Origin: Caldisericota bacterium
GTDB lineage: Bacteria > Caldisericota > Caldisericia > JAAYUI01
DNA: 64,000 nt
NCBI GenBank assembly: GCA_029548865.1
Contig: JAKPMO010000015.1
Span: 80,445-144,444 of the forward strand
Reading direction: 5' to 3'
Numbering within the stretch: position 1 is the stretch's first letter; the number at the start of each line of letters is the position of its first letter. Positions 31,114-55,234 of this stretch are shown here, in pieces. The notes under the pieces were generated by a model. That model saw only the letters and a program-made list of their open reading frames with translations. It made no database searches and was not told the DNA's origin. A program made the position numbers and the translations under genes.

Positions 31114-31556
31114 GTGGATTATATTAGCAAACCAGATGGCCCGGTCAACGTTAACCTTATATATACACTTTTGTAACCTTTATATCCCCATTGTGTTGCA
31201 TTCAACCCTCAAGTGCGATATAGTCTCAAATAATACCGTATCAAATGATTTAAATGGCAGGACCCATTTGTCCGGTCAGCGAGAAAAAGGCCTAAAAATG
31301 CAACACATCAACCGTGGCATGGGAATTGCATGATAACAAAACGGTGATGATCAATAGGTGTGAGAAAACATCTTTTGATTGTCATGTTGTTTTTATAAGG
31401 AGTTGGATTTATATGGTGCTTTGATGAAGTCACAGATTCATGGTGTGGCTTCGTTTGGTTTTGCGCACTTTGATTCATTCCTTGTGCGTCCATGCGTTGG
31501 TGGCTTTGCGAACGCCGCAAGCCGCTTTTGCAACAAATTGAAAGGAGAGTTTGGTG

Positions 31557-34500
31557 ATGAAAAAGACGATCAGCATTCTGATTGCGACTCTCATGCTGAT
31601 GACGGTTCTGCCCGTCTTTGGCAATGCCTCAATGGCTAGAGCCGAGAACTCTAATGCCAATGGTGTTTTCGTGGCTGTGAGATTCGAAGCTTCCGGTTGG
31701 AGATTCAGCGGTAATAGCCATGTGACTATGCCAAACCAGGAAATCATCTGGGGAAGACCACCGCAGTATCCAATGCCGGCCAATATCCATGCCTGGACCG
31801 AGTTTTATCTCGATGTAGTTCCAGCTGCTGGCATGTCAACTGAGTCTAATCACTGGTATGCAGTAATTGACACAGATGGCAACCTCTGGTTTGACTCGGA
31901 CGGAAACTTCCATGACTGCAGGTATTATAAATATGCAGACCCGGAAGACCCGGATTACGGAACCGACGCAGCCTCAACAATAGATAACTGCCAAACAAAC
32001 CCGCATGCCAGGTTTGACCCGACCTCTGCCAATAATACACAGGGACCATATCAGGTACCGAGGGGCAACAACATCTCCGGTGCCATCGGTGCCATCACCC
32101 CATTCAGTAAAAGTGCCAACCCGACTTATTTTATGGACCCAAAGACTGGCAGAACGTTCAGGATTGGAATAGCAGACCTTGTTGCCCGTAACTCGGGTGT
32201 GGTAGGCACTTCTTGGATCAATCCGGCAACTGGAAACCCATTGGTCAGCAACCCAGCACCAGAGTGGGACCAGGGAATGGCCCTGGAGCGTTTCCTTGAT
32301 GGTTATGGTCCTGGTGCACCGCCGGTTCCGCCGGCCGAGCCAGTGCCGAATGTCTACTATAACATAGGTGGCTATTTCTACCTCAATAACCTTGACTCAT
32401 GGAATTTTGGCGAAGAATGGCACGCCGTCAATGCTACCGGAAACAGGGAAATGGGTCCTTTCGATGGCATACACGACAACCAGCAGACCTACGTCGAAGG
32501 TGACTGGATTTACAGAAGGGGAGCCAACGGCGCCAACAATCTGGTTTCAGGTTATGATTACACCCAGACTGGTGCAGGTGGCCAGGCTTCTTTCCCGCAC
32601 TATTACGGCGACACCCGTCTTGTTCCGGTAGTTACCCAGAACGTACTTGGTCGCGTGATCAGGTATCCAGCCGGTTCAGCCGTAAGGGACAGAGCTCCTT
32701 TCAGCACCCGTGATGCAGGTGACGATTTCGACGTTGGGACCCCATGCTATCGTTTCCCGCTTTCAGACACCAACTTCAGTGCTTTTGGAAATCCACCAGT
32801 TTCACTCAGCGGAAATGCATGGCCGGGCTCGACTGTTGGCGATACCGTTCACCTCCAGCTCACATGGGGTGTCAATGGCATGTTTGACTACACCACAGTC
32901 ATCTCACCTTCGGGCACAATAAGCATTGCAGAAGGCATCTATGAAAAAGGCCTAGATGGCATGAGGGCCAACACCGTAGAACAGTATGATTTAAGACTCT
33001 CTCACTGGTCCACAGGTGCCGAAGCTTTTTTAACAAACCCGACAGCATACATCCAGCCAGGCGATGCCCTCATTATGTCCGAAGTTCTCACTGGTGGATG
33101 TGCCTCCCCGGTATACAATATCTCTATAGAAACTGATCTCTGGCAGGGTGTTGTTCCTTCCAAGACCATGGCAGCCATCAGAACCCCAAATGGAGAGGTA
33201 ACTTTCCAGGCCCAGAACATACAAAAAGCCACCGTCCTTGGACCAAATTCCCAGACATTCGCTGTTCCAGCTTGTTCCTTTGAAAACATAAAGCTGGATT
33301 ACAGAGAATATCTTGGTGTTGAGATATGGTATGATGATGGTGTGGACAACAACATTGGGGCCGATGGCGTCAATAGGTGTCTCCCCAATAACGGTTCTGA
33401 TGATTACGTTCCAGGCTCTGTTGGAGAACTCTTCCTTGGATGCCAGGATAATATCGCAGATACCGATATTGGTCTTGGAATGGATGCCATCTTCGGTCGT
33501 GTAACTGACCAGGCCGTTCTTCCAATGTCCGATTTCTACCAGCAGGATCCAGTTGGCAACCCGAACTTTGGTGCACCGGTGCGTTTCTTTGACACCAACA
33601 ATGCCCAGGGTGGTGGTTATGGCATAATCAACTATTATGGTTGTGGAGAGGCCCTCTATCGCGATATTGACTATCTCCTTGCCGCCACAACTGGTGGACT
33701 TGGTGCTTTCGAAATCTCCCCAGGTGACGTTCGTCTTTCTGATGTCACAGTTGTCCGCCGTGACCCGATTACTGGTGCACAAACAATCATTTCTTATGAG
33801 GCAGGTTCAACAGTTGCCCAAGGTGATGCTGATGTCAACCTCAGGCCTGGAACCGGACCAAACGTACTTTACCATCCTGGTGTTGTAGCAGATTATGTTG
33901 GTGGAAATGATCTTTCTGCCTTCTACGACAAATATTATGACATCCAGGAATACAATGCTTATGTTGCTGGCTGGAGCTTCCCGAATCCATACGAGCCAGT
34001 TTTCCTCGACTGGAAACACCTGGATCCATCTGATGCAACAAAGTGGATCCCACTCAACAACCAGTATGACCTTGGCGAGTTTATTTATGATGCCGGCCCA
34101 AACATTGAAACAAATGGCTGGACCTACGCTGGTTCAATTGTTACTGCATATGGGAACGTTCAGGATGGATTCATCCGTCTGACCAATGTTTCTTATGCTG
34201 GCCAGTATTACAAGTGTGGAACAGTATGCTCAATCTATGACCAGTGGAGAACCAATGCCCCGGTCTATGGAATCACTTTTGGCAACAATGGCGACAAGAG
34301 GTTTATGGACATGGAAGTCATTCCAGGTTCGGCCGGCGCCACCATGACAGTGTCAAAGCCATTCCAGGTAGAGCAAACCTCACACGTCAAAATTACACTT
34401 GATCCAGCACCAAAAGCAGGACATTGGGATGGAAACACCTGGATTCCTGATGAGAGAGGATATGTCCTCTTCCAGGGAATCGGCAAATATGAAATGGGTA

Positions 34501-37500
34501 AGGGTGAACCACGCAATCTCAACAACATGCTCTTCGAGATCACTCCAAACCGCCCAACAGCCGAATTTGAATTTACACCTTACAGGGGTTCATGTGACGA
34601 GACCGGCAGGGCCGATCGTCCAGGTTCCTCTTATGGTCTTATTACCACCTACGTCATCAGAGACAACGGTGGCCAGAGACCAGCACCACCAGATGGTTAT
34701 TATGGTGACTACTTCTGGGATCTCCATGGCATGTCATCCAACCAATTCGTCGGAAAAACCTTCAAGGAGCGCGTAAAAGGTCGCTTTGTTCCGTGGGCAC
34801 AGGACAACTTCTACCATCCAGAAGGAAATCTCCCATATCCTCCACTTCCTGCAGACCTCCAGAACAACTATGATTGCTTCGACGTGTTCTATGACAAAGT
34901 AAATCCAGAAAAGCTCGTTCTAACAGCCAACAGACTTTGTATTACCACACTTGACCAGCGTTTCCCGAACGTCTCAATCAAGCTCACCGATGCTGATAAT
35001 GAGAATGATGTCAATGATCCAGCAGGTGTTCCGTTCTCCATCCCGTTTGATCTTACCGCAAGGCAGTATGAAGGTTTTCATGCCAACATAGTTAATTATA
35101 ACTGCAATGGCGGTGGAATTGCTTGGATGGCAGTAGCAGTTCCAGCAAACACCTCAGCGCAGCACAAATTTATTGTTCAGTACAACACTGATGGCACTTA
35201 CTATTATTGGTACTGGTACGAGCCACCGCAAAACCCGATAGATACTCAGTATCCACAGGTACCGTGGGCACTCGACCCCAATGATTACCTTCTTGGTGAA
35301 GAGTACACCGGAACCTTCCCGATACCAAATACCACTGCAATCAAGAAAACCCCAGTCTTCGTTGACAACAGGGTATCACTCGAGGACATTGATTGCTCCC
35401 AGGGAACTGGAAACTGTGATGTTTGCGAGGTTCCAGGACTGAGGAAGCTTGGCGACATCACTGGTTATGTTGGGTATCCACTCCGTTCAGACCGCATTGG
35501 AATCTTTGATGGTACATTCGGATACATTGTTAAGTATGGTGTCCCAACCTATGTTACTGGCTATGGTCAGGTAACACCGTCTGATACAGGCGGAGAGTGC
35601 CTCCTTGCAGTCAAGCCGAAAGATGGTTCAACACACCTCAATATCCGTATCTACTCCAACATGACAACCTTTGACTACAACTCGACCATTGCACATCCAG
35701 CAATCACCAATGGTGGACCATTCTTTGTGTACGACAAGATGATCAATGGTTCATATCATGAGGGCATTGATTATTGCGGAACCCTCGATATGAAGGTTTA
35801 CCCACCAGATCCATACGTCAACTTTGCAGAGTTTACAATTGTTGACCACGCACTCCAGTTCTCTGATGTTCATTACACCGCTGGAACAACAACTGCTAGA
35901 TATCTTGGACCGCTTTCACCACTCAATATTCCAACTCCACAGATCCAGGCCCCGTATGATCCAATCCTTCGCTATGTCTCAACCGAATTCAGGTGCTATC
36001 CTGGTGGACAGACCCACGCCGGCCGTGTTACTGGTCAGGTTTGGGGTGGAAGAGGCGGACCATTTGGATGGAACGCATACCCAGCAATATGGAGCAAGAA
36101 GATGAATGAAAGGCTTACCAACGAACAGTTTGGCAAGCTTGGAACAGAGTTCTTCCCGCTCACTGATTATGGTTTCTACTTTATCGTTAAAGATGGCGAA
36201 GGCCGCCACCTCTCCTTTAATCCTGACTGGGAAATTGACAGAAGAATGGTCAGGATGGAGATCGTTGGACCATTTGCACGTCCAAAAGTTATAGACAGAA
36301 CCACTGGCTCTGTTACCACCCAGTATGAATACAATGGCCTCAAACAAGTCCCGATCTCGTATGATTGGACAGGGAAGATCGTTATCGACCAGACCAACTA
36401 CAAGGACTTTGAATATCAGGAAGTCAGGGCAGACTGGAATGGTGATGCAGGATCAGATCCGTTCACACCATATCAAGGAATCCCGAACGAAAACCGTCAG
36501 TACAGGAAATCAAATGATCTTATAAAGAAGCTCCATAACCTCAATTTCTCATCAGTAGGCTATGGAACACCAGTTGGCCCAGGCATGGTTGAGAACACCG
36601 ACAATGTTATCGTTGTTGACGAACTTATTCCATGGCAGCCAGGCAAGATACTCATCTATGTCACCTTGGCAGATGGTACCTTCAAGATGTATCAGGATTG
36701 CTGCACTGCACCGCCGGTTGATGGTGTTGATGTGCACGCTCTTGGCATTAATTATGTCATCTCCGATGACCCGGCAATAAGGAATGCACCGCTTGGAATA
36801 GACAACAAGGTTGAAGTCACACTCTCAGAGAACCAGCCGATCCAGACCAATAAAGAGTGCAATGATGCAGTTGTCTATATTTGGCAGGACAGGGGTGTCC
36901 AGAGAGCTGGTAAGGATCTTATGTTTGGTGCTGGCGATGGCTGGATCACCAACCCACCAGGATCAACAAGGTTCTACTATGGCAGATCAGATGGAAGCAG
37001 CTCCCAGTATGACACAACATGGGACAATGAACCGATAGATGTTAACGGAGACTCAAAGGTAACATTCAAAGATTGGGAAACCGAAATCTGCGGAAGCTAT
37101 GATATGGCAACAAATACCTGGAATGCTGGTATCATCGATGCTCGTACATTCCAGCGCAACAATGGCATCTATGTGTTTGAACTCACCGATTCCAACAGGT
37201 GTCGCGTTGAAACCTCAGGTCTTGATTTTGGTGGTGAGGAAGGCATTGGCGATCCACCAGACCATATCATTTCTGATAAAGAACTTCTCCCGCTCTATGT
37301 AACAGCATACAAGTATGGCGATGATAACAACGACAGGGCATTCTCACCATTCTGGGATCCGTCTCCTATGCAGGACACATACCAGCAGTCGAACCCATCA
37401 GCCAACAGAATGAGATACAGTCACGAAGTTTATCTTGCCGGCCAGATTGCAATTCCGGTCGAGCCGCTTGATGACCTCATTGTCACTGTTGCTTCACCAA

Positions 37501-40500
37501 AACTTCTTACAGCAGGTATCACCCCTGAACTCATCTCCCCAGACACACCACTCACATTCGAAGTCAAGAATGCAGAGGGTGGAAATGTTGACCTCTCACA
37601 AGGCATCAAGGACGTCTACAATGAAAACCTGGTCAAGGAAGACCACATCTGGAATTACCTCTTCAAAGACCCATACATTGATGACTTCTATTACTATGGA
37701 CCAGGCTCGTCACTACCACAGTACTTCTTTGTCAGAACCAACCTGCACAATAGAGACCTCGGTGTTGACAATAACGAAGAGCTCTTCTCTGTCAGGACCC
37801 TTAATACCAGCACATGTGATGAAACAATCTCCATACCATTCCGCCCGATCAAGGTTGATTTCTCACAGGCAAAGAATGGCAAGTATATCTTCAGAGGTTT
37901 CTGTGCCAACGACGTCACCACATGGAAGGGTGAAGAAGGCTCGCCAGACGAAGAGAAGTGGCTCAAAGACCACCAGTTCATCGTCCATGTTTATACACCG
38001 GACCGCAAGCACAGAGGAACTGTTGTAGTACCAATTGAATCACCAAAGGTATCATATGAAATCGTCAACGCCGAAGACCCGAATCTCACGTTCTACTCTT
38101 CACCTGGAGACCCGGACTTCGTAATGACCGCTGGCGACAACCGCATGTACAAAATCAGAGTCACAATCACTGATGCAGAAGGTCGCCTTGTAAAGGGCGT
38201 CACAAAGGGCGTCTCGGTTTGTGGTGGCGGTGTCAAGAACACAGCAAGGTTCACTCCATTTGTAACCAGGCCGGACAGCTTCGACTTCGATTTCAACCCG
38301 TGCCAGGGAACACCATGTGGAACAAAGATCTACCCACATGTTGGATTTGATTTTGATGCTTCAGAAAAGAAAGACGGAATCACAAACGCAATTGACCCAG
38401 GTAATAAGGAACTCTACCAGTTTGGTGGATTCACACTCAACACAAGGCTTGAGTATCAGAAGTGCCGTGACAGAGTTGAGAGTGGATATGTTGAGTACAA
38501 CTCAACCTGCTATTGGTACAGAGACAAGAACGAATGGGAAGTTGACTATGTGAACCCGAAAGACCCGACCCTTAAGGGCTGGGCAATCAACAAGAGAATC
38601 CCACCAAACCTCGAGTTCTCGCTCACTGGAGCATCCGAGCCACTCGCAAGAGGTTGGGGACTTGGAAATATCTACAACTATCCATACTGGGGTGGTGCAC
38701 TGTTTGCAGACATCGACTCCAATGGCGAGCTTGACTATCACGATGCACTTGGTCTTGATGTCAATGCACAAACAGAGTTCTTCCTCTTCGCAGAGGACGC
38801 ATGCTTCGTTGGCGGACTTGTCGGTTCCAACACTTACGTCAACAGCCGCAATGAGGCTGACGTGGCCGGATATCCACCAAGGTTCAGGACTGATCCAAGG
38901 GAAATCCAGAGAAGATTCAAGTACACAGTATCCAATGACCAGACGTTCTATCTTGACTGGGAAGCTTGGCCAGACCATGTTGCTCAGGTTGCCCCGCCAA
39001 AGGTCAAGGTGCTTGATGCATCAACCGGAAACAGGGAAGAAATCGGCAAGGAATTCCTCAACGGCGACAACTATGATCTTATTTACAACTGGGCCAACCA
39101 GCTGATCTGCGAGATTAGGCCAGCCGATGAGAGAGACGTCCCGATGCACCCAGATGGGTACATCATGATGGTTGGCAACCAGCATGAGCAGGCAGTCTAC
39201 GGCAGGACAAAACCATCGGCCGAAGACGAAAAAGTCATGGAAACCACAATTGAATTCACACCAACAGGTCTTGGTGAAGCAACCATCAATATGTTCTATC
39301 TCCAGAAGAACAAGTATTTCTGCGCAGGTTCAGATGTTTGCAACCAGGTCATAAAGATGGTTAAGCCTGAGTTCTATGGCGTGAAGGTGCAGAAGTTTGA
39401 TGTTGGCAAGGGACTTGAGATTACAGCAGAGACAATCGAAGATCTTACACCAAAAGCCAATGGCAAGATCTTCATCACAGTCAAGGAATATGGTGCCGGT
39501 GCACCAGTTGCAGGCGCAAAGGTAAAAGTTTCTGGCCTTGGCGTTGATCAAACCAAAACAACAAACGGCAAAGGCGAAGTTGAGATCGAAGTTGCTCCAA
39601 ATGCAACAGGGTTCCTCAAGATTGAAGCAACTGCAGACAACTTCAAGGGATCATCAACAAAGATCATGGTTGGTTCAGACAAGACCCCACCAATGCTCGA
39701 AATCGATCCAGTTGTTCCGATAACCAACAAAGACGAAGTGCAGATCACTGGTACTACTGAAAGTGGTTCCACAGTCACAATCAATGGCAAGCCAGCAACC
39801 ACAAAGGGCGACAAGTTCACTGGAACTGCAAAGCTCCAGAATGGCAAAAACACAATCGTAGTCGTCGCAACTGATGGTTCGGGCAATACCACAACAAAGA
39901 TGGTCTACGTAACCCTTGACAAAGAGGGTCCGGCCATCATGGTTGATGCAGTTGGTGAAAACAATACCGTATATGGAAAAGACTCAATCAAGCTCAAAGG
40001 CAGAGTTGATGCTGATTCCAAGGTTACCGTAAAAGACATGTCAGGTGCAGTTGTTGGCGAAGCCACCGTTGTGCACGATATGTGGATCCTTGACAATGTA
40101 AAGCTCGCTCCAGCCCCAAGCAAGAACGAGTTCAAGATTGAAGCCACAGATCTCGCTGGCAACACCAGCTCGGTCATGGTCACAATCACCAACATTGACA
40201 GGGTCATCATGACACTCAAGCAGGGTGACGTGAACGCAATGGTTGGCAACACACCAAATGCTCTCCCACTTGCTCCAAAAGGTACAGAGTTCTCGACACC
40301 AGTCGATTTCATCAAGCTCCTTGGTGGAACAGTGGATTTCAATCCGGCAACAAATACTGTCCAGATACAAATCAACAGCCATACACTCATTGCAACAATC
40401 GGATCAAACAAGGTCCAGATTGATGGCAACGAGAAGACAATCCAGTCAGCCCCAACGCTTTCCGGCAGCCTGGTGGTTGTCCCGGCAGTTGACATCTGCG

Positions 40501-40574
40501 CCAAAATGGGTCTTGTAACCCAGGTAAATGATGCAGACAAGACAGTCATGATAATCCTCGACAGGAAACCCTGA
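31557..40574 (+). CDS. Giant secreted protein (about 3005 aa), paralog A: Cys/Trp/Tyr-rich body, EF-hand-like Ca loops, C-terminal Ig-like repeats and a copper-amine-oxidase-N-terminal-type (stalk) domain
   Basis: ATG at 31557 after the RBS AAAGGAGAG; the track's TTG is at 31551. Signal peptide MKKTISILIATLMLMTVLPVFGNASMARA. The C-terminal 110 aa match the Cu_amine_oxidN1 fold pattern. Ig-like repeats TVTINGKPATTKGDKFTGTAKL..ATDGSGNTT. Long collinear blocks are shared with 45846..55082. Confidence 0.8.
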   Translation: MKKTISILIATLMLMTVLPVFGNASMARAENSNANGVFVAVRFEASGWRFSGNSHVTMPNQEIIWGRPPQYPMPANIHAWTEFYLDVVPAAGMSTESNHWYAVIDTDGNLWFDSDGNFHDCRYYKYADPEDPDYGTDAASTIDNCQTNPHARFDPTSANNTQGPYQVPRGNNISGAIGAITPFSKSANPTYFMDPKTGRTFRIGIADLVARNSGVVGTSWINPATGNPLVSNPAPEWDQGMALERFLDGYGPGAPPVPPAEPVPNVYYNIGGYFYLNNLDSWNFGEEWHAVNATGNREMGPFDGIHDNQQTYVEGDWIYRRGANGANNLVSGYDYTQTGAGGQASFPHYYGDTRLVPVVTQNVLGRVIRYPAGSAVRDRAPFSTRDAGDDFDVGTPCYRFPLSDTNFSAFGNPPVSLSGNAWPGSTVGDTVHLQLTWGVNGMFDYTTVISPSGTISIAEGIYEKGLDGMRANTVEQYDLRLSHWSTGAEAFLTNPTAYIQPGDALIMSEVLTGGCASPVYNISIETDLWQGVVPSKTMAAIRTPNGEVTFQAQNIQKATVLGPNSQTFAVPACSFENIKLDYREYLGVEIWYDDGVDNNIGADGVNRCLPNNGSDDYVPGSVGELFLGCQDNIADTDIGLGMDAIFGRVTDQAVLPMSDFYQQDPVGNPNFGAPVRFFDTNNAQGGGYGIINYYGCGEALYRDIDYLLAATTGGLGAFEISPGDVRLSDVTVVRRDPITGAQTIISYEAGSTVAQGDADVNLRPGTGPNVLYHPGVVADYVGGNDLSAFYDKYYDIQEYNAYVAGWSFPNPYEPVFLDWKHLDPSDATKWIPLNNQYDLGEFIYDAGPNIETNGWTYAGSIVTAYGNVQDGFIRLTNVSYAGQYYKCGTVCSIYDQWRTNAPVYGITFGNNGDKRFMDMEVIPGSAGATMTVSKPFQVEQTSHVKITLDPAPKAGHWDGNTWIPDERGYVLFQGIGKYEMGKGEPRNLNNMLFEITPNRPTAEFEFTPYRGSCDETGRADRPGSSYGLITTYVIRDNGGQRPAPPDGYYGDYFWDLHGMSSNQFVGKTFKERVKGRFVPWAQDNFYHPEGNLPYPPLPADLQNNYDCFDVFYDKVNPEKLVLTANRLCITTLDQRFPNVSIKLTDADNENDVNDPAGVPFSIPFDLTARQYEGFHANIVNYNCNGGGIAWMAVAVPANTSAQHKFIVQYNTDGTYYYWYWYEPPQNPIDTQYPQVPWALDPNDYLLGEEYTGTFPIPNTTAIKKTPVFVDNRVSLEDIDCSQGTGNCDVCEVPGLRKLGDITGYVGYPLRSDRIGIFDGTFGYIVKYGVPTYVTGYGQVTPSDTGGECLLAVKPKDGSTHLNIRIYSNMTTFDYNSTIAHPAITNGGPFFVYDKMINGSYHEGIDYCGTLDMKVYPPDPYVNFAEFTIVDHALQFSDVHYTAGTTTARYLGPLSPLNIPTPQIQAPYDPILRYVSTEFRCYPGGQTHAGRVTGQVWGGRGGPFGWNAYPAIWSKKMNERLTNEQFGKLGTEFFPLTDYGFYFIVKDGEGRHLSFNPDWEIDRRMVRMEIVGPFARPKVIDRTTGSVTTQYEYNGLKQVPISYDWTGKIVIDQTNYKDFEYQEVRADWNGDAGSDPFTPYQGIPNENRQYRKSNDLIKKLHNLNFSSVGYGTPVGPGMVENTDNVIVVDELIPWQPGKILIYVTLADGTFKMYQDCCTAPPVDGVDVHALGINYVISDDPAIRNAPLGIDNKVEVTLSENQPIQTNKECNDAVVYIWQDRGVQRAGKDLMFGAGDGWITNPPGSTRFYYGRSDGSSSQYDTTWDNEPIDVNGDSKVTFKDWETEICGSYDMATNTWNAGIIDARTFQRNNGIYVFELTDSNRCRVETSGLDFGGEEGIGDPPDHIISDKELLPLYVTAYKYGDDNNDRAFSPFWDPSPMQDTYQQSNPSANRMRYSHEVYLAGQIAIPVEPLDDLIVTVASPKLLTAGITPELISPDTPLTFEVKNAEGGNVDLSQGIKDVYNENLVKEDHIWNYLFKDPYIDDFYYYGPGSSLPQYFFVRTNLHNRDLGVDNNEELFSVRTLNTSTCDETISIPFRPIKVDFSQAKNGKYIFRGFCANDVTTWKGEEGSPDEEKWLKDHQFIVHVYTPDRKHRGTVVVPIESPKVSYEIVNAEDPNLTFYSSPGDPDFVMTAGDNRMYKIRVTITDAEGRLVKGVTKGVSVCGGGVKNTARFTPFVTRPDSFDFDFNPCQGTPCGTKIYPHVGFDFDASEKKDGITNAIDPGNKELYQFGGFTLNTRLEYQKCRDRVESGYVEYNSTCYWYRDKNEWEVDYVNPKDPTLKGWAINKRIPPNLEFSLTGASEPLARGWGLGNIYNYPYWGGALFADIDSNGELDYHDALGLDVNAQTEFFLFAEDACFVGGLVGSNTYVNSRNEADVAGYPPRFRTDPREIQRRFKYTVSNDQTFYLDWEAWPDHVAQVAPPKVKVLDASTGNREEIGKEFLNGDNYDLIYNWANQLICEIRPADERDVPMHPDGYIMMVGNQHEQAVYGRTKPSAEDEKVMETTIEFTPTGLGEATINMFYLQKNKYFCAGSDVCNQVIKMVKPEFYGVKVQKFDVGKGLEITAETIEDLTPKANGKIFITVKEYGAGAPVAGAKVKVSGLGVDQTKTTNGKGEVEIEVAPNATGFLKIEATADNFKGSSTKIMVGSDKTPPMLEIDPVVPITNKDEVQITGTTESGSTVTINGKPATTKGDKFTGTAKLQNGKNTIVVVATDGSGNTTTKMVYVTLDKEGPAIMVDAVGENNTVYGKDSIKLKGRVDADSKVTVKDMSGAVVGEATVVHDMWILDNVKLAPAPSKNEFKIEATDLAGNTSSVMVTITNIDRVIMTLKQGDVNAMVGNTPNALPLAPKGTEFSTPVDFIKLLGGTVDFNPATNTVQIQINSHTLIATIGSNKVQIDGNEKTIQSAPTLSGSLVVVPAVDICAKMGLVTQVNDADKTVMIILDRKP

Positions 40575-45845: not shown

Positions 45846-48800
45846 ATGAAGAAACTGTTGAGTATTGTGATCGCTACGATCATGGTATTGGGATTCGTCC
45901 CCTTCATGGGCAATCTCAGTACCGCAGCGAACGTAAGCGCTGCCGATGCCACCAACACACCAGCAATCTTCATCGCCAACCGCTGGCAGCCCGTCGGCAC
46001 CAGGTGGAACGGCACAACGCTGGTGGAGGATCGCAACCGTTATTTTAACGGCGTTGGCACTGCTTGGGGCAGGTCGGAATACAAGATGCCAGGCCCAGGC
46101 GCTTACATTGACATCGCTGTTATCGATCCGGCCCGTCCGCTCAGGATTAATGCTACTCCTGACGAAGTAGCCAAGAGGGAACCAACAGGTGTCCAGCTTC
46201 AGCAGCTCACCTCACAACCCCTCTACTGGACCGAGTTCTATCTCACAGTAATACCGGATAAAGGCGCTTCACAGCTTTATGACCACTGGTATGCTGTTGT
46301 TGACAACATGGGACAGCTCTGGTTCGACCCGGATGGCCGTTTCAATGACAGCCGCTATTATGCAGCCGCTGATCCAGAAACCGAGGCCTACAGGGCAATA
46401 ACCGGTGGTTCTGGTTCTGACAACTGCAAGAACAACCCATACATGAAGGTTGACTCGTCCGTCGCCAACAATACTCAGGGCCCATACATCTACATGCCCA
46501 CCGACATCTATGGCAACTTCATCATGAATGGTATTACCAGAAAAGAAGAGTATCCGCTTTTCAACTCAACAGGCCTCTTCTTCCGCACCTCACAGGGCAG
46601 GGTTTTCCAGGTCGGTTTTGTCGACATGCCAGACTTCCCGCTTATCAGGGGCGGCGCATCGCCAATCCAGCTCCAGGGTGTTTCAAGACCCAATATTGAG
46701 CAGATTGGAACCAATCTTGTTGATACAACTGTTGGTCAGACTAACGTAATAACTGACACCACAGTTCTTCCATACACAACCCGCCCAATCCTTGATTGGG
46801 ACCGTGATGATGTTGGCAATGGAATCACTGGACTTCCACTCGTCCGCTTCTTGGATGGTTGGGAAGGTGCTGTTATAAATGCACTTCCACCAGCCCCAAT
46901 TCCATACACCAACCCACCAACAATTACTGTCGGTGCATACTTCCAGACAGACAACGACATCTTTAACTACGGCGAAGAATGGCACTCCGCAAATGTAGTT
47001 ATTGATCCTCCAGACACAACCCAGTTCCCATCACCGGCAATGGACATCTATGATCCAGGTGAATATATCTATCGCGCCGGATTTAATGCCCATAACCTGA
47101 ACAGCCGTTATCCAGCCGGTTACGACTATATGCTCCAGCAGGACATCCAGTGGTACCAGTATTATGGCACCACCCGTCTTACCCCGGTCACAATGTTCTT
47201 TAATGGCCTCTTCTTTAACTATGCACCTGGCACAATCGTTCGTGACAGAGGCCCGGCCAATGGTGGCCAGTATGGATATTATGATGCTGGTGATGACGTT
47301 GATCTCAATGATCCAGCTACTCCAACACAGCAGCACACCCTTTATCGTTTCCCAGTTTCTATGGCGAACTTCTCTGGTGTTCCAGGACAAGTTGCACCGA
47401 TCAATGTTACCCAGTACTGCCAGCTCCATGCTGACAACGTAAACTACAACTCCAATCCACGCTGCGCTTCTGGCGATGACATCTATGACCCATACGAAGG
47501 CATTTATATGAAGTCAGAGACAACTGCAAACGTAGTCTCTGGTGACTATCGTATGACAAACCTTAATGGTAATTCTTATGGTCTTGAGTCATGGCTTGGC
47601 CTTGGTGGTGGCGTTGCTTCCTCACTCTATCCATTGATCATGAAGGTCGGTGGAATGTGGTCTGGTGACGTCCTTATCCTTTCAGAGCTTGTTACTGGCG
47701 GCTGCTCTGCCCCGAAATACAACCTCTCAGTCCAGACTGACCTCTGGCAGGGTGTCATCCCGTCCGAAACCGTTGCTGCACTTCGTTCACCAAACAAAGA
47801 GTTTGACAGGACCGCACAGAATATCCAGAAAAATGCTGTTCTTGACCCAACCGGGACAAAATTTGAATATCCGTCCACAGTCTTCCAGGACATGAAATTT
47901 GGATACAGAGAGTATGTTGGAGTTGAAGTCTTCCGTGACGACAACAAGGACTGCAACTGGGGATATCAGTATGCAGGCCCAGTTCCGCCAGGAGAAAACC
48001 TCTTCATGCTCAACCTCTCCGACGATTATCGCCAGGGACATACTGGTGAAATGCATATCGGTATGAAAGATGGATATGCAGCAAAAGACGTTGGTAGAAT
48101 GCTCACACAGTTCTGGCCGGCAAATGCCGACCCACTCCCGCCAAATGGCCCGGCAACACCAAATGAAATAGGTCCACGCTTCTATGACACAACAAACCCA
48201 GGCGGATGGGGCATTGAGAACTATTACGGTGTTGGTGAATCAATTTATCTTGACAACAATGGCAACTACGAGATCGACGCTGGCGACCTTCGTATGTCAG
48301 ACGTCACCGTTCAGCGTGGCGCTATGGGTTTTGCCGAAATAGTCAAGTATGAAAAGGGTTCATATGTCACCGCCGGTGATGCAGACATTGATCTCTGGGG
48401 AGGCGCGAATAATGACCTCTCAGATTTCGTTCCGATATTGACCAATGGTCGTGTTGTTTATTGGCCAGCATTCTATGATGAGCTCATCGAAGATGTGCTC
48501 AATCCTGGTCATTATCTCCCGCCAAATGGCAAGTATGACATCAATGAAGTTATCTATGATTGCTCTTACAATGGCAGCTCCATTGTTGGCCCTGGATTCC
48601 AGAGGCTCATGGATGTTACCCTTGGTGGAATAGTCTACAAAGCTGGTTCGATTGTTCCAGATCCAGACCTCTGGGTTTACCAGATGCCGATCTATGGACT
48701 TTCGATGGGCTATAACTGCGACTACAACTATGCTGATATGATGGCGCTCCCGGGCAAAACCGGAATGAAAGTCACAATTGACAAACCACTCAAGGTTGAA

Positions 48801-51800
48801 CAGACCTCTGAGATCACAATTGATTTTGATCCGCCACCAAAGAAAGAATATTATGATGACCAGGGCGTTTATCACCCAGAGGAAGTCATTTATGTATTCA
48901 TTCGTAACCTCGGACTTTCCATCCCGAATAACAATGCAACAATAAACGAAATTTACCGCGTAGTTTCAGGCCGTCAGGCACAGGCAAAGTTCCAGTTCAC
49001 ACCATATCGTGGTTCCTGCACCAATGGTGGAAACAACGACAAGCTCAACTACCTCGAAGATTCCAACGAATATCGTGTTAGAATCCGTTCTTTCAGGGAT
49101 CTTGGTGGAACAAACAATCCAGCCCCGCTTGACAGAGACTACAACGATCCATGGTTTGTGCAGAGAAATTCAACTAGCACAGATGCAAGATGGGGACGTC
49201 CATATAAACTAGCCTCTTATGGCGTAAGGGTTAGAAAACCAGAACTTACCCCACCAATGCCATACAATCTTGCAAATGGCTATGACTGCTATCAGGAAGC
49301 CAAGTATGATATTGCACCAGAAGAACTCGACATTGAGCCGTCAGTGGCCTGCTTGCAGACACTTGATCAGCGCTTCCCGAACTTCTCGGTGAAACTCCGT
49401 GATGATGACAACCCAGACGATGTAAATGATCCAAACGGAATCATGGTTTCAGTGCCACTTACTGGCGACACCAACGTTGACCCGATCTATGGTCGTGAGC
49501 AGTATCTCATCTCAACATACAATGCCCATGGCGGCGGTGTTGATTGGATCGGTACAGCAATTGATGACAACCCAGGCCAGGCACGCAGACAGTACATTGT
49601 CCAGGTCAACACAGACGGTTCATACCTCTACTGGTACTGGCTCGAGCCGGTTAACCCAGCAGGCAATGACAGATCAAGGCCACAGATTGAAGGAGCCCTT
49701 GATTCAAACGATATCCTTATTGGCCAGGACTTCACTGGAACATTTAACTGGCGTCCAAATGGTGGACCATACATCCCACCAGACCAGAGAACCTGCAGGA
49801 CACCAGTCATCATTAAAGACAAAGCAACATGGTATGATACTGATTGCTCTTCAGCCACAGTTGAAGGCAGGAAGTACTCAAATTGCCAGTCATGCAAGAT
49901 TGATGGCATGAAAGAAATGGGCGATGTCAACGGTCTCCATGTGATGTGGAACGCAGCACGCACCATGACCTCAACAGTTCCAGCAAGACTTTCGTCAGAC
50001 TACTACGGAAGATTTGATGGAGTTGGACCACTTAATTCAACAACAACAGTTGCAGCCTGGATAGCTGGTATCAACCCACCATGGCCAGGCAACCAGATGT
50101 ATCCAAACAGCCAGCTTTGGACAGGCCCATGGGCCACAGGTTATGGCGTGCAGACAGTGGTTACCTCTTATGGCCAGCGTGATGCAAATGATGCTGGTGG
50201 TGAGGCACTCGTCGCAATTCTTCCACGTGATGGATCAAGCCATCTCCTCCTCCAGATGTACACTGTAAACGCACTCTTTGACTACAACTCCTCGATACCA
50301 CATCCATCGACTGGTTCACCATACTTTGTCCTCGATCCAGTCAGGAACCAGGGCATCGATTATTGTGGAACAGTTGACATTAAGGTTTATCAGCCAGACC
50401 CATACGTGAACTTTGCAGAGTGGTCCATTGTTGATCATGGTCTCCAGTATTCCTCACTTAACTACACATCCGGCAATGATCCACTTTCAAGGCTTTCAAT
50501 ACCAACCCCACAGATCCAGACCCCGTACAACCCAGTGCTTAGGACTTCTAAGGGCGAGTTCAGATGTTATCCTGGTGGCCAGACCCACACCGGCCGCGTT
50601 CTTGGCGGTTCCTTCGGAGTAGGTGGAGCCTCAGGCTGGAACTCTTACCCAGCAGTCTGGAAAGAGAAATATTACAAGCTTGGAACTGAATTCTTCCCAC
50701 TCACTGACTATGGTGTGTTCTTCATCCTCAAAGACGGCGAAGGCAACCATCTCTCGTTCGATCCATGCTGGCCAGTTGACCAGAGGATCAAGAGAATCGA
50801 AGTTGTTGGACCATTTGCCCGTCCAAGGGAATGGGATGCAACAACCCACACGGTACTTCCAAAATACAAAGCATGGGGCCTCGAAAACGTTCCGATACAG
50901 TATGATTGGTCAGGAAAGATCGTAATCGACTCCACAAACTGGAAACAGTATGAGTACAGCGGTGTTGACCAGAACGGCAACGGCGTCACCCTTGACTTCA
51001 CAAGGAGATCAGGACTTGTTGGCGATGTCGTTCTTCCGCCAGAAAACGGCCAGCTCCAGTATTCAGGTAGACTCGACTACACAATGGTCGGTGCCTGCTC
51101 GCAACCAGGTGGAAAAGACAACCTCTTTGTAGTTGACGAACTCATCCCATGGAACTGGGGCAAGATCCTCATCTACGTCACCCTCTGGGATGGAACATTC
51201 AAGATGTATCAGGATTGCTGCGTTGCGCCGCCAGTTGACGGAATTGACGTAATAGCCCTTGATATCAAGAATGAAATTGCAGAGGACGTAGAGCGTAAAG
51301 TTGCATACCTCGACAAGCCACAGACCTTCAATGTCAAGCTCCTTGAGCACCACATTGGCGACAAGAAGCACGAAGGCGAATGGTTTGATGCTGAAGGCAA
51401 CGAGATAACATATTGCAATGACGCACTCGTTTATGTGTGGCAGGACAGGGGAACAAAGCATCGCGGAACCGCCAACCTGCTCTTCGGAGCTGGCGATGGC
51501 TGGGCAACCGGAACACCAACTTCCTCAAGGAAGACCAATCTTGCACCACAGTATGAAGACTTCAATGACATCACTGGCCCGAAGGGCGAGCCAGATGGAA
51601 AGATCCGTTTCAATGACTGGGAAACCGAAATTATCGGAACCTATGACATGGCCACCAATACATGGGCAGGCGGTCTCATTGATGGCAGAACCTTCCAGCG
51701 TAACAACGGACACTATCAGTTCAAGCTCGATTCAAGCACCGGTCTTGTTGATACAGTCGGTCTTGATTTCGGTGGCGAGATCATAAATGACAGGGCGGAC

Positions 51801-54800
51801 CACGTAATCGCAAAGAACGAGGTTCTTCCACTTTACATCACCGCCTACAAGTATGGCGATGATAACAACGACAGAGCATTCTCACCATTCTGGGACTACG
51901 ATGCACAGGCACAGCAGAATGCAAACCTGAGAAGGTACAGCCACGAAGTTTATCTTGCTGCCCAGATGGCAGTCCCGGTAGAACCGGATCTTGACCTCAC
52001 AGTTCTTACAACACCAGAGAAACTTACCGCTGGTGTCACACCAGAACTTGTTGATGTCCAGAAACCACTCACCTTCACAGTCACCAAGGGCTCCGAGCCA
52101 GTCAACCTCCTTGACGGAATAGCTGACGACTGGGGCAACAAGAAAGCCGAAGAAGAAGTAGTTTGGAACAACCTCATCCTTGACCCACATCCAGACAACA
52201 CCGACTTCTACGGATTTGATGCAACACTTCCACAGTATTACTGGATCAGAACTGACCTCCAGAACAATGATGGTTCAGCAGTCTGCAATACCCAGCTTTA
52301 CGGTCTCCGCAACACACCAGACACGCCACCAATCATTGCATTCAACCCAATCACCATTGACTTCTCACAGGCTACAAATGGCCGCTACATCTTCAGGGGC
52401 TTCTGCGCCAACGACAACAACCAGTACATGGAGAACTGGGACAAGGGCACCATGAATCCGAACAACTCAAGTGAGGATCTCTGGAAGAGCCAGCACCAGT
52501 TCTACGTAAGGGTTTACACACCAGACCGCAAGCACTCAGGTGAGGCATGGATCAATGTCTACTCACCAAATGTTGAGTACAAGGTCACAAACACTGAAGA
52601 CCCGAACAAGGTAGCCTATGATTCACCAGGCGATCCAGAGTTCATCATGACAGCAGCTGACAACAGAATCTACAAGGTTCAGGTCACCTGCCGCGATGCT
52701 CTCGGCGTCCTCATTAAGGGCGTCACAAAGGGCGTCTCCGTCTGCGGTGGCGGTGTCAAGAACACTGCAAGGTTTACACCATTCTCCACCAGGCCGAAAT
52801 CATTCGACTTCGCCCTCGAAGAGTGCATGAAACCACCATGCTGCACACAGATTGAGCTTCACATTGGTTATGACTTCACTCCAGACGAGAAGATCAGAAG
52901 AGATGATCACGAGCTCTTCCTCCTCTCAGGTTTCAACATGAACCGTTCAGCCAACACCTCATCCTGCTCAGGCTCAACAGCCTCCGCAAGCATGGGCTTC
53001 ATCAGATACAACACCACCAACAAGTGGTATTGGGGCGGACCGAACCCGAATACTTGGGATGTGACCAAGGAAGACGGCGACGAAGTTATCCCATGGGTTG
53101 CTTGGGACCTTCCACCACCAGTCGAAGGCTGGGGCGCTGGTGCCATCTATAACCACCAGTGGTATGGCGGATTCCTCTTCGCCGACATCGACCAGAATGG
53201 CGTCCTCAACTATCACGATGCACTTGGTCTTGATGTTAACGCTCAGACTGAGTTCTACATCTTCGCAGAAGACGTGGCTTACATCGGTGGTCTCATTGGC
53301 GACAACACATACTGCAACGTTCCAGCAAACGCTGACCTTGCAGGCTTCCCGCCATACAATGACAAGACCGATCCAAGATACACCCACAAGAGATTCCGCC
53401 AGGCTTACACCAACGACCAGGTGTTCTATCTTGACTGGGATGCACCGCCAGACAATGTTGCAACAATTGACAGCCCAAGGATCGAGCTCCTCTATGCCGA
53501 TACCAGGGACAAAGTATCAAGAGATTTCCTCAACCCGAACAACTATGATCTTATCTACGGCATCCAGAACCACCTTGTTGCAGTAGTCAGGCCAGCAGAT
53601 GACCGCGACGTTGCCATGAAGGAAGACTCAAGAGTCTATATGTCAGGCAACCAGCATGAAAAAGCAGTCTACGGACACACCAAGAGATCGGCAGAAGACG
53701 CAAAGGCAGTCGAGACGACAATCGAGTTCCTCCCGACCGGTCTTGGCGAGCACACCGCCGAAGTAACCTTCATGTCACCGAACAAGTGGTACCTCAAGGA
53801 TCCATATCAGTTCGTTGTTCCAGAATGGTATTCAATCAGGGGCGGCGGAATGAAGGACAGGAAGAACCGTCCAGCAGAAGAATGGAACCCATGGTATCTT
53901 GATGTAGGCAAGGGACTCGTACTCAGCCTCCAGACAGAGGGAGACCTCTATCCACAGGTGAAGGGTAAAGTTCTTGCCCAGGTCAAAGAAGCAGGAACCA
54001 ATGCACCAGTTGCTGGCGCAAAGGTCACTCTCTCCGGTGCAGGCGTCAATGTTGAAATGACCACCGATGCAAAGGGTGAGGCAACATTCGAAGTTAAGCC
54101 AACCGAGATGGGATTCATCAAGGGTGATGCCACAGCAAAGGACTTCCTCAGGGCAGCCTCTAACAAGGTGAAGGTGTCCAAGGATGCCACAGCCCCGGCA
54201 CTCACAGTTGACAATCCACAGACCCCAACCAACAAGAACAAGACTTCAATTACTGGAACTACAGAGCCAGGTTCAAAGATTTACGTCAATGGCAAAGAAG
54301 TCCAGGTTGGAGCAGACGGCAAGTACAAAGCTGATGTCGAACTCAAAGAAGGCCAGAACGTTATCAATGTTGTTGCCAAGGACGCAGCAGGCAATACAAC
54401 GTCGCAGGTAGTCACCATCGTCCTCGACACCACACCGCCAACAGTCATCCTTGACCCGATTAAGCCAGTTATCATGGAGAAGACTTATGAACTCACAGGC
54501 CGCGTTGAGCCAGGTTCAAAGGTCATCGTTAACGGCAAGGAAGCAACAGTTGTCAATGATTACTTCACAGTGATCGTTGACCTCAAGGACGCTTCTGCAG
54601 CAGCAACAAAGACCCCGGTCAATATTGAAGCAACCGACAAAGCTGGTAACAAGACAACACTTCCAGTCTTCGAGATCATCAATAAGAAGAGGAAAGTTGT
54701 TAAGCTCCAGGTTATGAGCCCAACAATGTATGTTGACGACAAGGAAGTCAATATCAATCCTGCACCATACATCAAAAATGGTGGAACTCTCGTTCCAGTC

Positions 54801-55082
54801 AGGGCCATATCCGAAGCTTTTGGCGCAGCAGTCAGCTATGATGGACCAACAAAGACTGTAACAATTACTCTTGGCCAGATCACAATCCAGATCCAGATCG
54901 GCAACAAGAAGGCAGTTGTGAACGGTCAGGAAGTTGATGTAAACCCACCAGCTGAAATTTCGGGTGGAAGCACAATGGTACCGTTCAGGTTCATTGCCCA
55001 GTCACTCGGTGTTCCATCTGATGGAATACTCTATGATTCTGCAACCAGGACCATCACCCTCATCAAGATCGAAGAACCGTGA
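45846..55082 (+). CDS. Giant secreted protein (about 3078 aa), paralog B of 31557..40574
   Basis: ATG at 45846 after the RBS AAAGGAGAC, with the same AATTGAAAGGAGA context as paralog A. Signal peptide MKKLLSIVIATIMVLGFVPFMGNLSTAANVSA. Identical or near-identical blocks shared with A. C-terminal Ig-like repeats plus a Cu_amine_oxidN1-type domain. Confidence 0.8.
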   Translation: MKKLLSIVIATIMVLGFVPFMGNLSTAANVSAADATNTPAIFIANRWQPVGTRWNGTTLVEDRNRYFNGVGTAWGRSEYKMPGPGAYIDIAVIDPARPLRINATPDEVAKREPTGVQLQQLTSQPLYWTEFYLTVIPDKGASQLYDHWYAVVDNMGQLWFDPDGRFNDSRYYAAADPETEAYRAITGGSGSDNCKNNPYMKVDSSVANNTQGPYIYMPTDIYGNFIMNGITRKEEYPLFNSTGLFFRTSQGRVFQVGFVDMPDFPLIRGGASPIQLQGVSRPNIEQIGTNLVDTTVGQTNVITDTTVLPYTTRPILDWDRDDVGNGITGLPLVRFLDGWEGAVINALPPAPIPYTNPPTITVGAYFQTDNDIFNYGEEWHSANVVIDPPDTTQFPSPAMDIYDPGEYIYRAGFNAHNLNSRYPAGYDYMLQQDIQWYQYYGTTRLTPVTMFFNGLFFNYAPGTIVRDRGPANGGQYGYYDAGDDVDLNDPATPTQQHTLYRFPVSMANFSGVPGQVAPINVTQYCQLHADNVNYNSNPRCASGDDIYDPYEGIYMKSETTANVVSGDYRMTNLNGNSYGLESWLGLGGGVASSLYPLIMKVGGMWSGDVLILSELVTGGCSAPKYNLSVQTDLWQGVIPSETVAALRSPNKEFDRTAQNIQKNAVLDPTGTKFEYPSTVFQDMKFGYREYVGVEVFRDDNKDCNWGYQYAGPVPPGENLFMLNLSDDYRQGHTGEMHIGMKDGYAAKDVGRMLTQFWPANADPLPPNGPATPNEIGPRFYDTTNPGGWGIENYYGVGESIYLDNNGNYEIDAGDLRMSDVTVQRGAMGFAEIVKYEKGSYVTAGDADIDLWGGANNDLSDFVPILTNGRVVYWPAFYDELIEDVLNPGHYLPPNGKYDINEVIYDCSYNGSSIVGPGFQRLMDVTLGGIVYKAGSIVPDPDLWVYQMPIYGLSMGYNCDYNYADMMALPGKTGMKVTIDKPLKVEQTSEITIDFDPPPKKEYYDDQGVYHPEEVIYVFIRNLGLSIPNNNATINEIYRVVSGRQAQAKFQFTPYRGSCTNGGNNDKLNYLEDSNEYRVRIRSFRDLGGTNNPAPLDRDYNDPWFVQRNSTSTDARWGRPYKLASYGVRVRKPELTPPMPYNLANGYDCYQEAKYDIAPEELDIEPSVACLQTLDQRFPNFSVKLRDDDNPDDVNDPNGIMVSVPLTGDTNVDPIYGREQYLISTYNAHGGGVDWIGTAIDDNPGQARRQYIVQVNTDGSYLYWYWLEPVNPAGNDRSRPQIEGALDSNDILIGQDFTGTFNWRPNGGPYIPPDQRTCRTPVIIKDKATWYDTDCSSATVEGRKYSNCQSCKIDGMKEMGDVNGLHVMWNAARTMTSTVPARLSSDYYGRFDGVGPLNSTTTVAAWIAGINPPWPGNQMYPNSQLWTGPWATGYGVQTVVTSYGQRDANDAGGEALVAILPRDGSSHLLLQMYTVNALFDYNSSIPHPSTGSPYFVLDPVRNQGIDYCGTVDIKVYQPDPYVNFAEWSIVDHGLQYSSLNYTSGNDPLSRLSIPTPQIQTPYNPVLRTSKGEFRCYPGGQTHTGRVLGGSFGVGGASGWNSYPAVWKEKYYKLGTEFFPLTDYGVFFILKDGEGNHLSFDPCWPVDQRIKRIEVVGPFARPREWDATTHTVLPKYKAWGLENVPIQYDWSGKIVIDSTNWKQYEYSGVDQNGNGVTLDFTRRSGLVGDVVLPPENGQLQYSGRLDYTMVGACSQPGGKDNLFVVDELIPWNWGKILIYVTLWDGTFKMYQDCCVAPPVDGIDVIALDIKNEIAEDVERKVAYLDKPQTFNVKLLEHHIGDKKHEGEWFDAEGNEITYCNDALVYVWQDRGTKHRGTANLLFGAGDGWATGTPTSSRKTNLAPQYEDFNDITGPKGEPDGKIRFNDWETEIIGTYDMATNTWAGGLIDGRTFQRNNGHYQFKLDSSTGLVDTVGLDFGGEIINDRADHVIAKNEVLPLYITAYKYGDDNNDRAFSPFWDYDAQAQQNANLRRYSHEVYLAAQMAVPVEPDLDLTVLTTPEKLTAGVTPELVDVQKPLTFTVTKGSEPVNLLDGIADDWGNKKAEEEVVWNNLILDPHPDNTDFYGFDATLPQYYWIRTDLQNNDGSAVCNTQLYGLRNTPDTPPIIAFNPITIDFSQATNGRYIFRGFCANDNNQYMENWDKGTMNPNNSSEDLWKSQHQFYVRVYTPDRKHSGEAWINVYSPNVEYKVTNTEDPNKVAYDSPGDPEFIMTAADNRIYKVQVTCRDALGVLIKGVTKGVSVCGGGVKNTARFTPFSTRPKSFDFALEECMKPPCCTQIELHIGYDFTPDEKIRRDDHELFLLSGFNMNRSANTSSCSGSTASASMGFIRYNTTNKWYWGGPNPNTWDVTKEDGDEVIPWVAWDLPPPVEGWGAGAIYNHQWYGGFLFADIDQNGVLNYHDALGLDVNAQTEFYIFAEDVAYIGGLIGDNTYCNVPANADLAGFPPYNDKTDPRYTHKRFRQAYTNDQVFYLDWDAPPDNVATIDSPRIELLYADTRDKVSRDFLNPNNYDLIYGIQNHLVAVVRPADDRDVAMKEDSRVYMSGNQHEKAVYGHTKRSAEDAKAVETTIEFLPTGLGEHTAEVTFMSPNKWYLKDPYQFVVPEWYSIRGGGMKDRKNRPAEEWNPWYLDVGKGLVLSLQTEGDLYPQVKGKVLAQVKEAGTNAPVAGAKVTLSGAGVNVEMTTDAKGEATFEVKPTEMGFIKGDATAKDFLRAASNKVKVSKDATAPALTVDNPQTPTNKNKTSITGTTEPGSKIYVNGKEVQVGADGKYKADVELKEGQNVINVVAKDAAGNTTSQVVTIVLDTTPPTVILDPIKPVIMEKTYELTGRVEPGSKVIVNGKEATVVNDYFTVIVDLKDASAAATKTPVNIEATDKAGNKTTLPVFEIINKKRKVVKLQVMSPTMYVDDKEVNINPAPYIKNGGTLVPVRAISEAFGAAVSYDGPTKTVTITLGQITIQIQIGNKKAVVNGQEVDVNPPAEISGGSTMVPFRFIAQSLGVPSDGILYDSATRTITLIKIEEP

Positions 55083-55123
55083 CCTTGATGATCATCGGTA
55101 AGTAGTAACAAGTAACACCAAAA

Positions 55124-55153
55124 AGCCCCCGCTTTATGGCGGGGGCTTTTTTA
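55124..55153 (+). terminator. Rho-independent terminator of giant gene B
   Basis: AGCCCCCGC-tttatg-GCGGGGGCT followed by T6. Confidence 0.7.
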
Positions 55154-55234
55154 TTTGCGATAACTGTGTTTATCGGGATTTCTCAGGTCATCCTTCATTG
55201 ACACTTAGGATTTGAGGGGTGTATAATCCAGTTT

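Follow-up and report, generated by a model that had tools for sequence, protein, structure and literature searches.

The window analysed here, a 64,000-nucleotide stretch of the genome of an uncultured Caldisericales bacterium (assembly GCA_029548865.1, contig JAKPMO010000015.1, positions 80,445 to 144,444), carries two giant paralogous genes, A (31557..40574, + strand, 3005 amino acids (aa)) and B (45846..55082, + strand, 3078 aa from the ATG). On balance, their products appear to be Sec-exported, wall-anchored structural proteins of the surface-layer (S-layer) type. The two proteins share 40% identity along their whole length (BLASTP, E = 0) and both start with a Sec signal peptide (aa 1–30 in A, ~aa 1–35 in B), leaving mature proteins of ~329 and ~339 kDa, each with an isoelectric point (pI) of 4.7. 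The starts of both genes were set by the conserved Shine–Dalgarno (SD) sequence and ATG, and residue numbers for B are counted from a GTG at 45843, hence they are one higher than those from the ATG. An initial annotation, made from the letters of this DNA, had described two long paralogous genes for secreted proteins, and the + strand open reading frames (ORFs), the full-length identity and the signal peptides bear this out. The collinear peptide blocks that it quoted are present in both proteins, although a 24-mer called identical has a single substitution (LPLYV.. in A, LPLYI.. in B). Cysteine makes up 1.0–1.2% of residues in A and B, an average level, hence the proteins are not Cys-rich as had been proposed.

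Matches to known families (Pfam) were limited to the last ~400 residues of A and B. The C-terminal tail of A (39477..40553, + strand) comprises CarboxypepD_reg-like, Glucodextran_B/Big, Big_6 and Cu_amine_oxidN1 (stalk) domains, and that of B (53979..55058, + strand) CarboxypepD_reg-like, Glucodextran_B/Big_6 and Cu_amine_oxidN1 (E = 2e-30), in agreement with the immunoglobulin (Ig)-like and copper-amine-oxidase-N-type C-termini read from the sequence earlier. NCBIfam contributed a weak Ca_tandemer match in the tail and nothing further. Cu_amine_oxidN1 (PF07833) is regarded as a cell-wall-associated or wall-binding module (PMC4137172; bioRxiv 10.64898/2026.09.23.753664), and the tail is a putative wall anchor. 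A check of both protein sequences found no LPXTG motif or transmembrane segment; the thioester motif C[GLIA]EQ and the PGF-CTERM sorting signal are likewise absent from A and B, which both terminate in the stalk domain, and neither gene contains tandem DNA repeats. Thioester-protein, LPXTG-anchor and tandem-repeat models were rejected for A and B on these grounds.

The first ~2600 aa of A and B gave no Pfam or NCBIfam match, a PDB sequence search with the giant-protein body gave none, and a plasmid collection held no match to the giant proteins. A profile of the conserved core run against 1.84 billion representative proteins returned 86 hits, nearly all of them family members or fragments, so the earlier description of central bodies with no recognisable sequence motif still stands. 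Conservation peaks at B residues ~1450–2650. The N-terminal half is more variable; a ~70-aa module, Y..GE.IY...GD.RLT.V....Y.AGS.V..GD.D.G, recurs in it and has expanded in the longer paralogs. The conserved core of B (50193..53792, + strand, aa 1451–2650) was modelled, its counterpart being the most conserved core of A (35586..39320, + strand). Alignments for the structure models were shallow (21 and 15 rows). The AlphaFold2 model of the core, based on the 21-row alignment, is nearly all beta and mostly resembles a string of Ig/macroglobulin (MG)-like sandwiches, with a predicted local distance difference test score (pLDDT) of 66 and a predicted template modelling score (pTM) of 0.65. Foldseek matches to the core include mastigoneme proteins, CD109/complement and the Nitrosopumilus S-layer protein 8c8m, with template modelling scores (TM-scores) of only ~0.1 (0.08–0.12), which indicates that the "chain of sandwiches" character is common to these proteins and the domain arrangement is not. 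The model of the N-terminal half is poor (pLDDT 49), its match types resembling those of the core. Further Ig-like strings matched were RTX adhesin 5irb/4p99, SiiE, PrgB and antigen I/II, and MG-domain proteins (alpha-2-macroglobulin, CD109, complement C3/C4/C5) were among the best structural matches; no catalytic fold appeared among those of the core and N-terminal models. The parts without a confident model amount to approximately 30% of the core and over 50% of the N-terminal half. The description that best fits these models is a unique body in which strongly diverged beta-sandwich domains follow one another without repetition. On its own terms, the initial annotation would be refuted by bodies that are just concatenated known adhesin repeats with no conserved novel domain, and this applies in part: in the confidently modelled parts only Ig/MG-like sandwiches and no novel fold were seen, but these are not repeats of known adhesin families and do not occur in tandem.

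Both genes are preceded by a sigma-54-type −24/−12 promoter. The promoters of A (31315..31330, + strand, TGGCATGGGAATTGCA) and B (45651..45666, + strand, TGGCATGATAATTGCA) are both exact matches to the pattern TGGCAY-N5-TTGCA (also written TGGCAC-N5-TTGCW), applied with fixed spacing on the gene's strand, and that of A is invariant in orthologs. Three matches to TGGCAY-N5-TTGCA occur in the window, where 0.27 were expected. The third strict match, TGGCATTTTTCTTGCT at 29185–29200 (+ strand), lies within an ORF for an HRDC-domain protein and antisense to it, and is probably due to chance because no gene follows. The promoter motif was detected in 15 of 40 orthologous or paralogous loci, which make up groups A, B and C, and within these groups it is invariant while its flanks diverge. 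It lies 136–271 nt ahead of the ATG in all three paralog groups, two of which do not adjoin the helix-turn-helix (HTH) gene described below, and of the 26 strict matches found across ~1 Mb of Caldisericota loci, 23 are directly upstream of giant-gene starts. Group C is a third paralog with a sigma-54-type promoter, represented by L009 (contig JAKIZT010000003.1, 76553–91351; 43% identical to B), which is encoded on the same contig ~4–13 kb past the window's left end and on the opposite strand. With promoters of this type, transcription would need sigma-54 and an AAA+ enhancer-binding activator, and the sequence suggests that A and B are sigma-54-dependent in vivo. Sigma-54 regulons are generally linked to the cell exterior (PMC3162934).

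A Gibbs motif search recovered a palindrome, TATACA-N4-TGTATA, 141–158 nt upstream of the promoter TGGCA in 16 of 16 non-redundant A/B/C loci; for 14 of these the position is −153 to −158. The site of A (31162..31177, TATACACTTTTGTAAC), at ~−155 from the promoter, is a candidate enhancer or upstream activating sequence. That of B, also at −155 (45494..45515), is a degenerate copy which overlaps the end of the HTH gene, covering its final codons and the stop. Only two copies with ≤2 mismatches are present in the window, the site at 31162 and a perfect palindrome at 45005 (45005..45020, TATACAAATATGTATA), which lies 214 nt before the HTH gene and is a candidate operator; in loci L006 and L010, palindrome-related sites precede the HTH gene by 85 nt. 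A second block near −100 has the family consensus GTGT-N8-TACYCAT. In A this element is a weaker, degenerate copy (31213..31231, GTGCGATATAGTCTCAAAT, ~−100) recognised from locus alignments and a promoter-anchored listing, and in B it is located at 45527..45545 (GTGTTTCATATACTCATTA).

The stand-alone Fis-type HTH (HTH_8) gene (45219..45512, + strand, 97 aa; PF02954 at residues 48–87, E = 1e-11) ends 334 nt before the B ATG. It is present upstream of every B ortholog with upstream sequence available, confirming the Fis-like gene noted next to B at the outset. A sigma-70-like promoter for this gene (45172..45201, + strand, TTGACA-18-TATAAA) was read by eye and had not been listed by the scanner (sixth base A). 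The protein family forms 17 lineage-specific clusters, 16 of them with proteins of 97 aa and one of 120 aa. NCBIfam matched only the C-terminal DNA-binding domains of sigma-54 activators, far below the cut-offs, and none of its Fis models. The protein has only HTH_8-type matches and no AAA+ sigma-54 interaction domain (PF00158), hence it is not an activator by itself. Most plausibly, it binds the palindromes of both its own gene and the giant-gene promoters. No activator gene was found in the window; a 460-aa ORF that follows a GAF-domain histidine kinase gene (8984–12225, + strand), where a response regulator would be expected, gives only a weak DUF4388 match.

Between promoter and start codon, both genes have a structured 5′ leader. 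That of A (31343..31556, + strand) has a minimum free energy (MFE) of −75.8 kcal/mol (z = −4.6) and that of B (45679..45845, + strand) one of −55.4 kcal/mol (z = −4.1), the latter including the hairpin ACGCCGC...GCGGCGT. Leaders of the family are 136–271 nt long and mostly fold better than shuffled controls, with negative z in 14 of 16 loci; Rfam recognised no known RNA element in them, finding just tmRNA and tRNA elsewhere in the window. The SD of A (31540–31548, + strand, GAAAGGAGA) is invariant in all orthologs, and that of B (45830–45838, + strand) lies within the B leader. The common translation-initiation context reported initially, AATTGAAAGGAGA, was verified, with exactly two copies in 64 kb, at the starts of A and B (0.02 expected). 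A shared 10-mer, AACGCCGCAA, was also present as described, exactly twice in the window at 31511–31520 (direct) and 45785–45794 (inverted), against 0.09 expected. However, it is not conserved in orthologous leaders and is missing from more distant orthologs; it forms a hairpin arm in each of the two leaders, and the inverted orientation arises because the two copies sit in opposite hairpin arms. It was rejected as a regulatory site, the conserved signals being instead the sigma-54-type promoters, the upstream palindrome, the long folded leaders, the strong SD and the terminators. The latter are a bidirectional intrinsic terminator after A (40601..40630, AAAAAAGCCCCCGGAAACGGGGGCTTTTTT) and an intrinsic terminator after B (55120..55152, AAAAAGCCCCCGC-TTTATG-GCGGGGGCTTTTTT).

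The window is the neighbourhood of the chromosomal origin, with gidA/mnmG, parA, parB, tmRNA (24982–25327, − strand, Rfam) and dnaA (29818–31113, − strand) between 2195 and 31113. dnaA is divergent from A, and both giant genes are origin-proximal and point away from it. A complete 2.23-Mb chromosome (OY771555.1) has four paralogs within ~200 kb around dnaA, again oriented away from dnaA. The effective number of codons (Nc) of B is 41.0, the lowest among 41 window genes (median ~49). Codon bias, SD, terminators and the origin-proximal placement suggest that A and B would be highly expressed.

The giant-protein family is almost confined to Caldisericota, a phylum common in anaerobic digesters and sediments and with a single cultured species. 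The window itself is 99% identical to the metagenome-assembled genome (MAG) UR.bin110 (JAKIZT01). Database searches returned 48 full-length relatives of 2700–3630 aa, annotated merely as "hypothetical" or "stalk domain-containing", and all those with a source name came from Caldisericia MAGs. A scan that took one genome for each GTDB species located 174 encoding stretches. All 68 retained loci were from MAGs, most labelled Caldisericota, Caldisericia or Caldisericales, with a few labelled "bacterium" alone and one "Calditrichota"; the MAGs had been recovered from digesters and bioreactors. Genomes carry 4–6 paralogs, at times in tandem, and the family takes up ~2% of the genome in related MAGs. 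Three loci (L026, L028 and L064) each contain two divergent giant paralogs in tandem, without the sigma-54 promoter motif. Conservation extends over the full length: D/G/P/Y/W residues are invariant at hundreds of positions, and a unique domain order is kept across 30–75% identity. Searches of the literature turned up nothing specific to Caldisericota giant proteins, sigma-54 or envelope imaging. The family is Caldisericota-restricted and unstudied, and its general kind is known (Ig-like-domain surface or S-layer proteins); its size, paralog number, sigma-54 promoter architecture and conserved stand-alone Fis-type HTH partner are distinctive.

Remote homologs of the core were detected in archaea. 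P0126 (1616 aa; L072, 259–5109) aligned to the core over 434 columns (hhalign probability 99.4%, E = 2e-21), has a PGF-CTERM-like C-terminus (22.1 bits against a cut-off of 24.5) and has its nearest relatives in proteins of "archaeon SCG-AAA382B04" and Candidatus Methanohalarchaeum. P0142 (1994 aa) has both the N-terminal repeat module and core blocks in common with the giant family. P0126 and P0142 place the core in a wider, very sparse set of cell-surface proteins extending to archaea. P0159 and P0160 are further archaeal remote homologs of the core (Methanohalarchaeum / SCG-AAA382B04 relatives), and a gene for a CARDB-like surface protein follows that of P0126.

We propose that A and B would be exported by the Sec pathway and held at the cell wall by the C-terminal Ig-like/Cu_amine_oxidN1 "stalk" tail, with the ~2600-aa body displayed as a major structural surface component, in a coat of the S-layer or sheath type. 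Each giant gene would be monocistronic, running from enhancer-like palindromes through a sigma-54 promoter, folded leader and strong SD to a 9-kb ORF and a strong terminator, and the 97-aa HTH protein would most likely be an architectural or modulating co-regulator of a candidate AAA+ activator, not the activator. The acidic pI, chains of beta-sandwiches, paralogs, leader, SD, terminator, origin-proximal co-directional placement and the Nc of B fit an abundant coat protein, and the ~2% genome share, conserved sigma-54-type promoters and origin-adjacent position make the family the obvious candidate for a major surface structure. Wall anchoring, suggested by the tail, and a surface-layer role are both predicted. 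The initial proposal of an uncharacterised surface or adhesion system therefore survives in that the proteins are secreted, paralogous and conserved, with an HTH gene linked to B, and fails for its Cys-rich and 10-mer parts.

Several observations weigh against this interpretation. S-layer genes are usually constitutive and sigma-70-driven, not sigma-54-dependent, and neither an SLH nor another canonical S-layer anchor was found in A and B. Group C paralogs lack the stalk domain, and ~25 of the 40 loci, the more divergent paralogs, have no sigma-54 promoter. Neither an RpoN box nor the activator motif GAFTGA was found in the window or in the ~1 Mb of fetched loci, which cover giant-gene neighbourhoods only. 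Conservation of the −155 site in group B could stem from the HTH protein, because the site overlaps coding sequence. The moderate core and poor N-terminal models (pLDDT 66 and 49) may leave room for a functional domain. Finally, no family member could be traced in database searches to Caldisericum exile, the sole cultured species, hence its reported "outer-membrane-like envelope", which is without BamA or other predicted outer-membrane proteins (PMC4104836; PMC7203096), is only a phylum-level analogy.

The main rival is that the giants are non-lattice adhesins or fibrils, made conditionally to attach cells to particles or to partner cells, or to give filaments and granules cohesion in anaerobic digesters, with no continuous coat, which we consider possible but less probable. 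It draws on the Ig-like strings matching giant adhesins (RTX adhesin, SiiE, PrgB, antigen I/II), the Ca_tandemer match, the presence in each genome of several diverged paralogs, with expanded N-terminal repeats, the digester and bioreactor origin of the MAGs, and the enhancer-dependent promoters, which imply regulated and not constitutive synthesis. Against adhesins, there are no near-identical tandem repeats, the unique domain order is kept end to end across 30–75% identity, export is by Sec signal with no type I secretion system (T1SS) or sortase signals, and conservation peaks in the core of the body rather than in a tip domain; the codon bias and origin-proximal placement also suit abundant proteins. 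The MG-domain proteins among the best structural matches, together with the unmodelled portions of core and N-terminal half and many invariant D/E/H positions (e.g. SHEVY, AYKYGDDNNDR), could instead point to binders or traps, such as alpha-2-macroglobulin-like protease traps or polymer-capturing/degrading machines with an active domain in the unmodelled parts. This is very unlikely given the missing thioester CxEQ motif, the lack of any catalytic or carbohydrate-active family in Pfam, NCBIfam and PDB sequence searches, and TM-scores of 0.08–0.12, which leave the sandwich-chain character alone in common.

A further alternative concerns the promoters, in that TGGCA...TTGCA may not be used by sigma-54, being an operator or a sigma-70-related element, with the HTH protein acting on B only, as an ordinary repressor or activator. 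In favour of this, the window and the ~1 Mb of giant-gene neighbourhoods yielded neither rpoN nor AAA+ activators, the HTH protein is without the domain needed for sigma-54 activation, and its gene is linked to B only. We nevertheless regard this as quite unlikely, as both elements and their spacing fit the sigma-54 consensus and the motif remains invariant amid drifting flanks, at 136–271 nt before the ATG in groups A, B and C, of which two are not adjacent to the HTH gene. The motif is also nearly exclusive to giant-gene upstream regions, and HTH_8 domains are typical of sigma-54 activators.

The preferred reading, of a wall-anchored coat, can be extended into a joint scenario that we consider unlikely to hold as a whole. 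Here the giants would build a proteinaceous envelope which replaces a classical outer membrane, would go back to one ancient surface-layer module in common with PGF-CTERM surface proteins of Methanonatronarchaeia-like archaea, and would be controlled by a "split" enhancer, the 97-aa HTH_8 protein recruiting or positioning at TATACA-N4-TGTATA an AAA+ activator that has no DNA-binding domain of its own. If the coat interpretation is true, the family would offer a protein handle for envelope studies of Caldisericota, a new group of surface proteins that are built of Ig-like domains and have remote relatives in archaea, and a case in which enhancer-dependent regulation, with a stand-alone Fis-type HTH partner, governs a cell coat.

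Other genes of the window were also annotated. Ahead of the HTH gene, the interval between A and B contains minus-strand genes for an old yellow enzyme (OYE) flavin oxidoreductase, an ABC-2 transporter and an SPFH protein, and a minus-strand 180-aa ORF. Directly after B (55235–57036, + strand) are a 402-aa ORF with weak beta-propeller matches and a YkuD L,D-transpeptidase gene; the neighbourhood downstream of B is not kept in the more distant genome L001. Near the origin, DnaA-box-like 9-mers number 33 against 17 expected, with clusters near 21.4–21.6, 25.4–25.6, 27.4 and 29.7–29.8 kb, and the gene order at dnaA is atypical, with the HRDC protein and histidyl-tRNA synthetase (HisRS) downstream. 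A 588-aa PEGA-domain protein with three PEGA stretches (21617–23383, − strand) adjoins parB, with the same synteny in Caldisericia L002; such domains typically occur in proteins of the envelope and surface. The hydrogenase-bearing lineage proposed initially is supported by a NiFe-hydrogenase cluster (4236–8587, + strand) encoding Fe-S, FAD/NAD, small and large subunits and a HycI-type maturation protease. At 59672–61949 (− strand), an extracytoplasmic function (ECF) sigma factor gene (61392–61949) is followed by a 217-aa unannotated ORF and a gene for a DUF4349 protein, and these genes could be a sigma/anti-sigma envelope-stress module.

Compared with known systems, the Thermotogae outer sheath or "toga" (Omp-alpha / Omp-beta) is a possible analogy only, the family not being detected in C. 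exile. Giant Ca2+-stabilised adhesins (MpIBP, SiiE, Bap) are, like A and B, very large Ig-like surface proteins, a likeness seen in the Ca_tandemer and structural matches; however, they have near-identical tandem repeats and T1SS or sortase signals, whereas A and B have neither, showing a unique domain order and Sec peptides. At the regulatory level, NtrC-type promoters with Fis/IHF looping (glnAp2) have the same −24 GG/−12 GC spacing and dyads 100–160 bp upstream. The 97-aa HTH protein resembles Fis in size and in its C-terminal HTH_8, but gave no Fis-model match, and it differs from NtrC activators, which have receiver and AAA+ domains, in possessing neither. Bacterial S-layer proteins (Geobacillus SbsC, Bacillus Sap/EA1) share with A and B the Sec export, acidic character, wall-binding module (putative in A and B) and beta-sandwich chain, as well as a long leader, strong SD, terminator and several paralogs. 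A and B differ from them in having no SLH, a putative C-terminal anchor, ~3000 rather than ~800–1200 aa, and sigma-54 instead of strong sigma-70 promoters. Against archaeal S-layer proteins (Haloferax volcanii csg, PDB 7PTP; Nitrosopumilus maritimus S-layer protein (SLP), PDB 8C8M), A and B are 2–4 times longer, bacterial and with Big and Cu_amine_oxidN1 ends, with TM ~0.1. Both are nonetheless large, acidic, secreted chains of beta-sandwiches, and the PGF-CTERM type of tail found in csg has a similar counterpart on P0126, the remote homolog of the A/B core.

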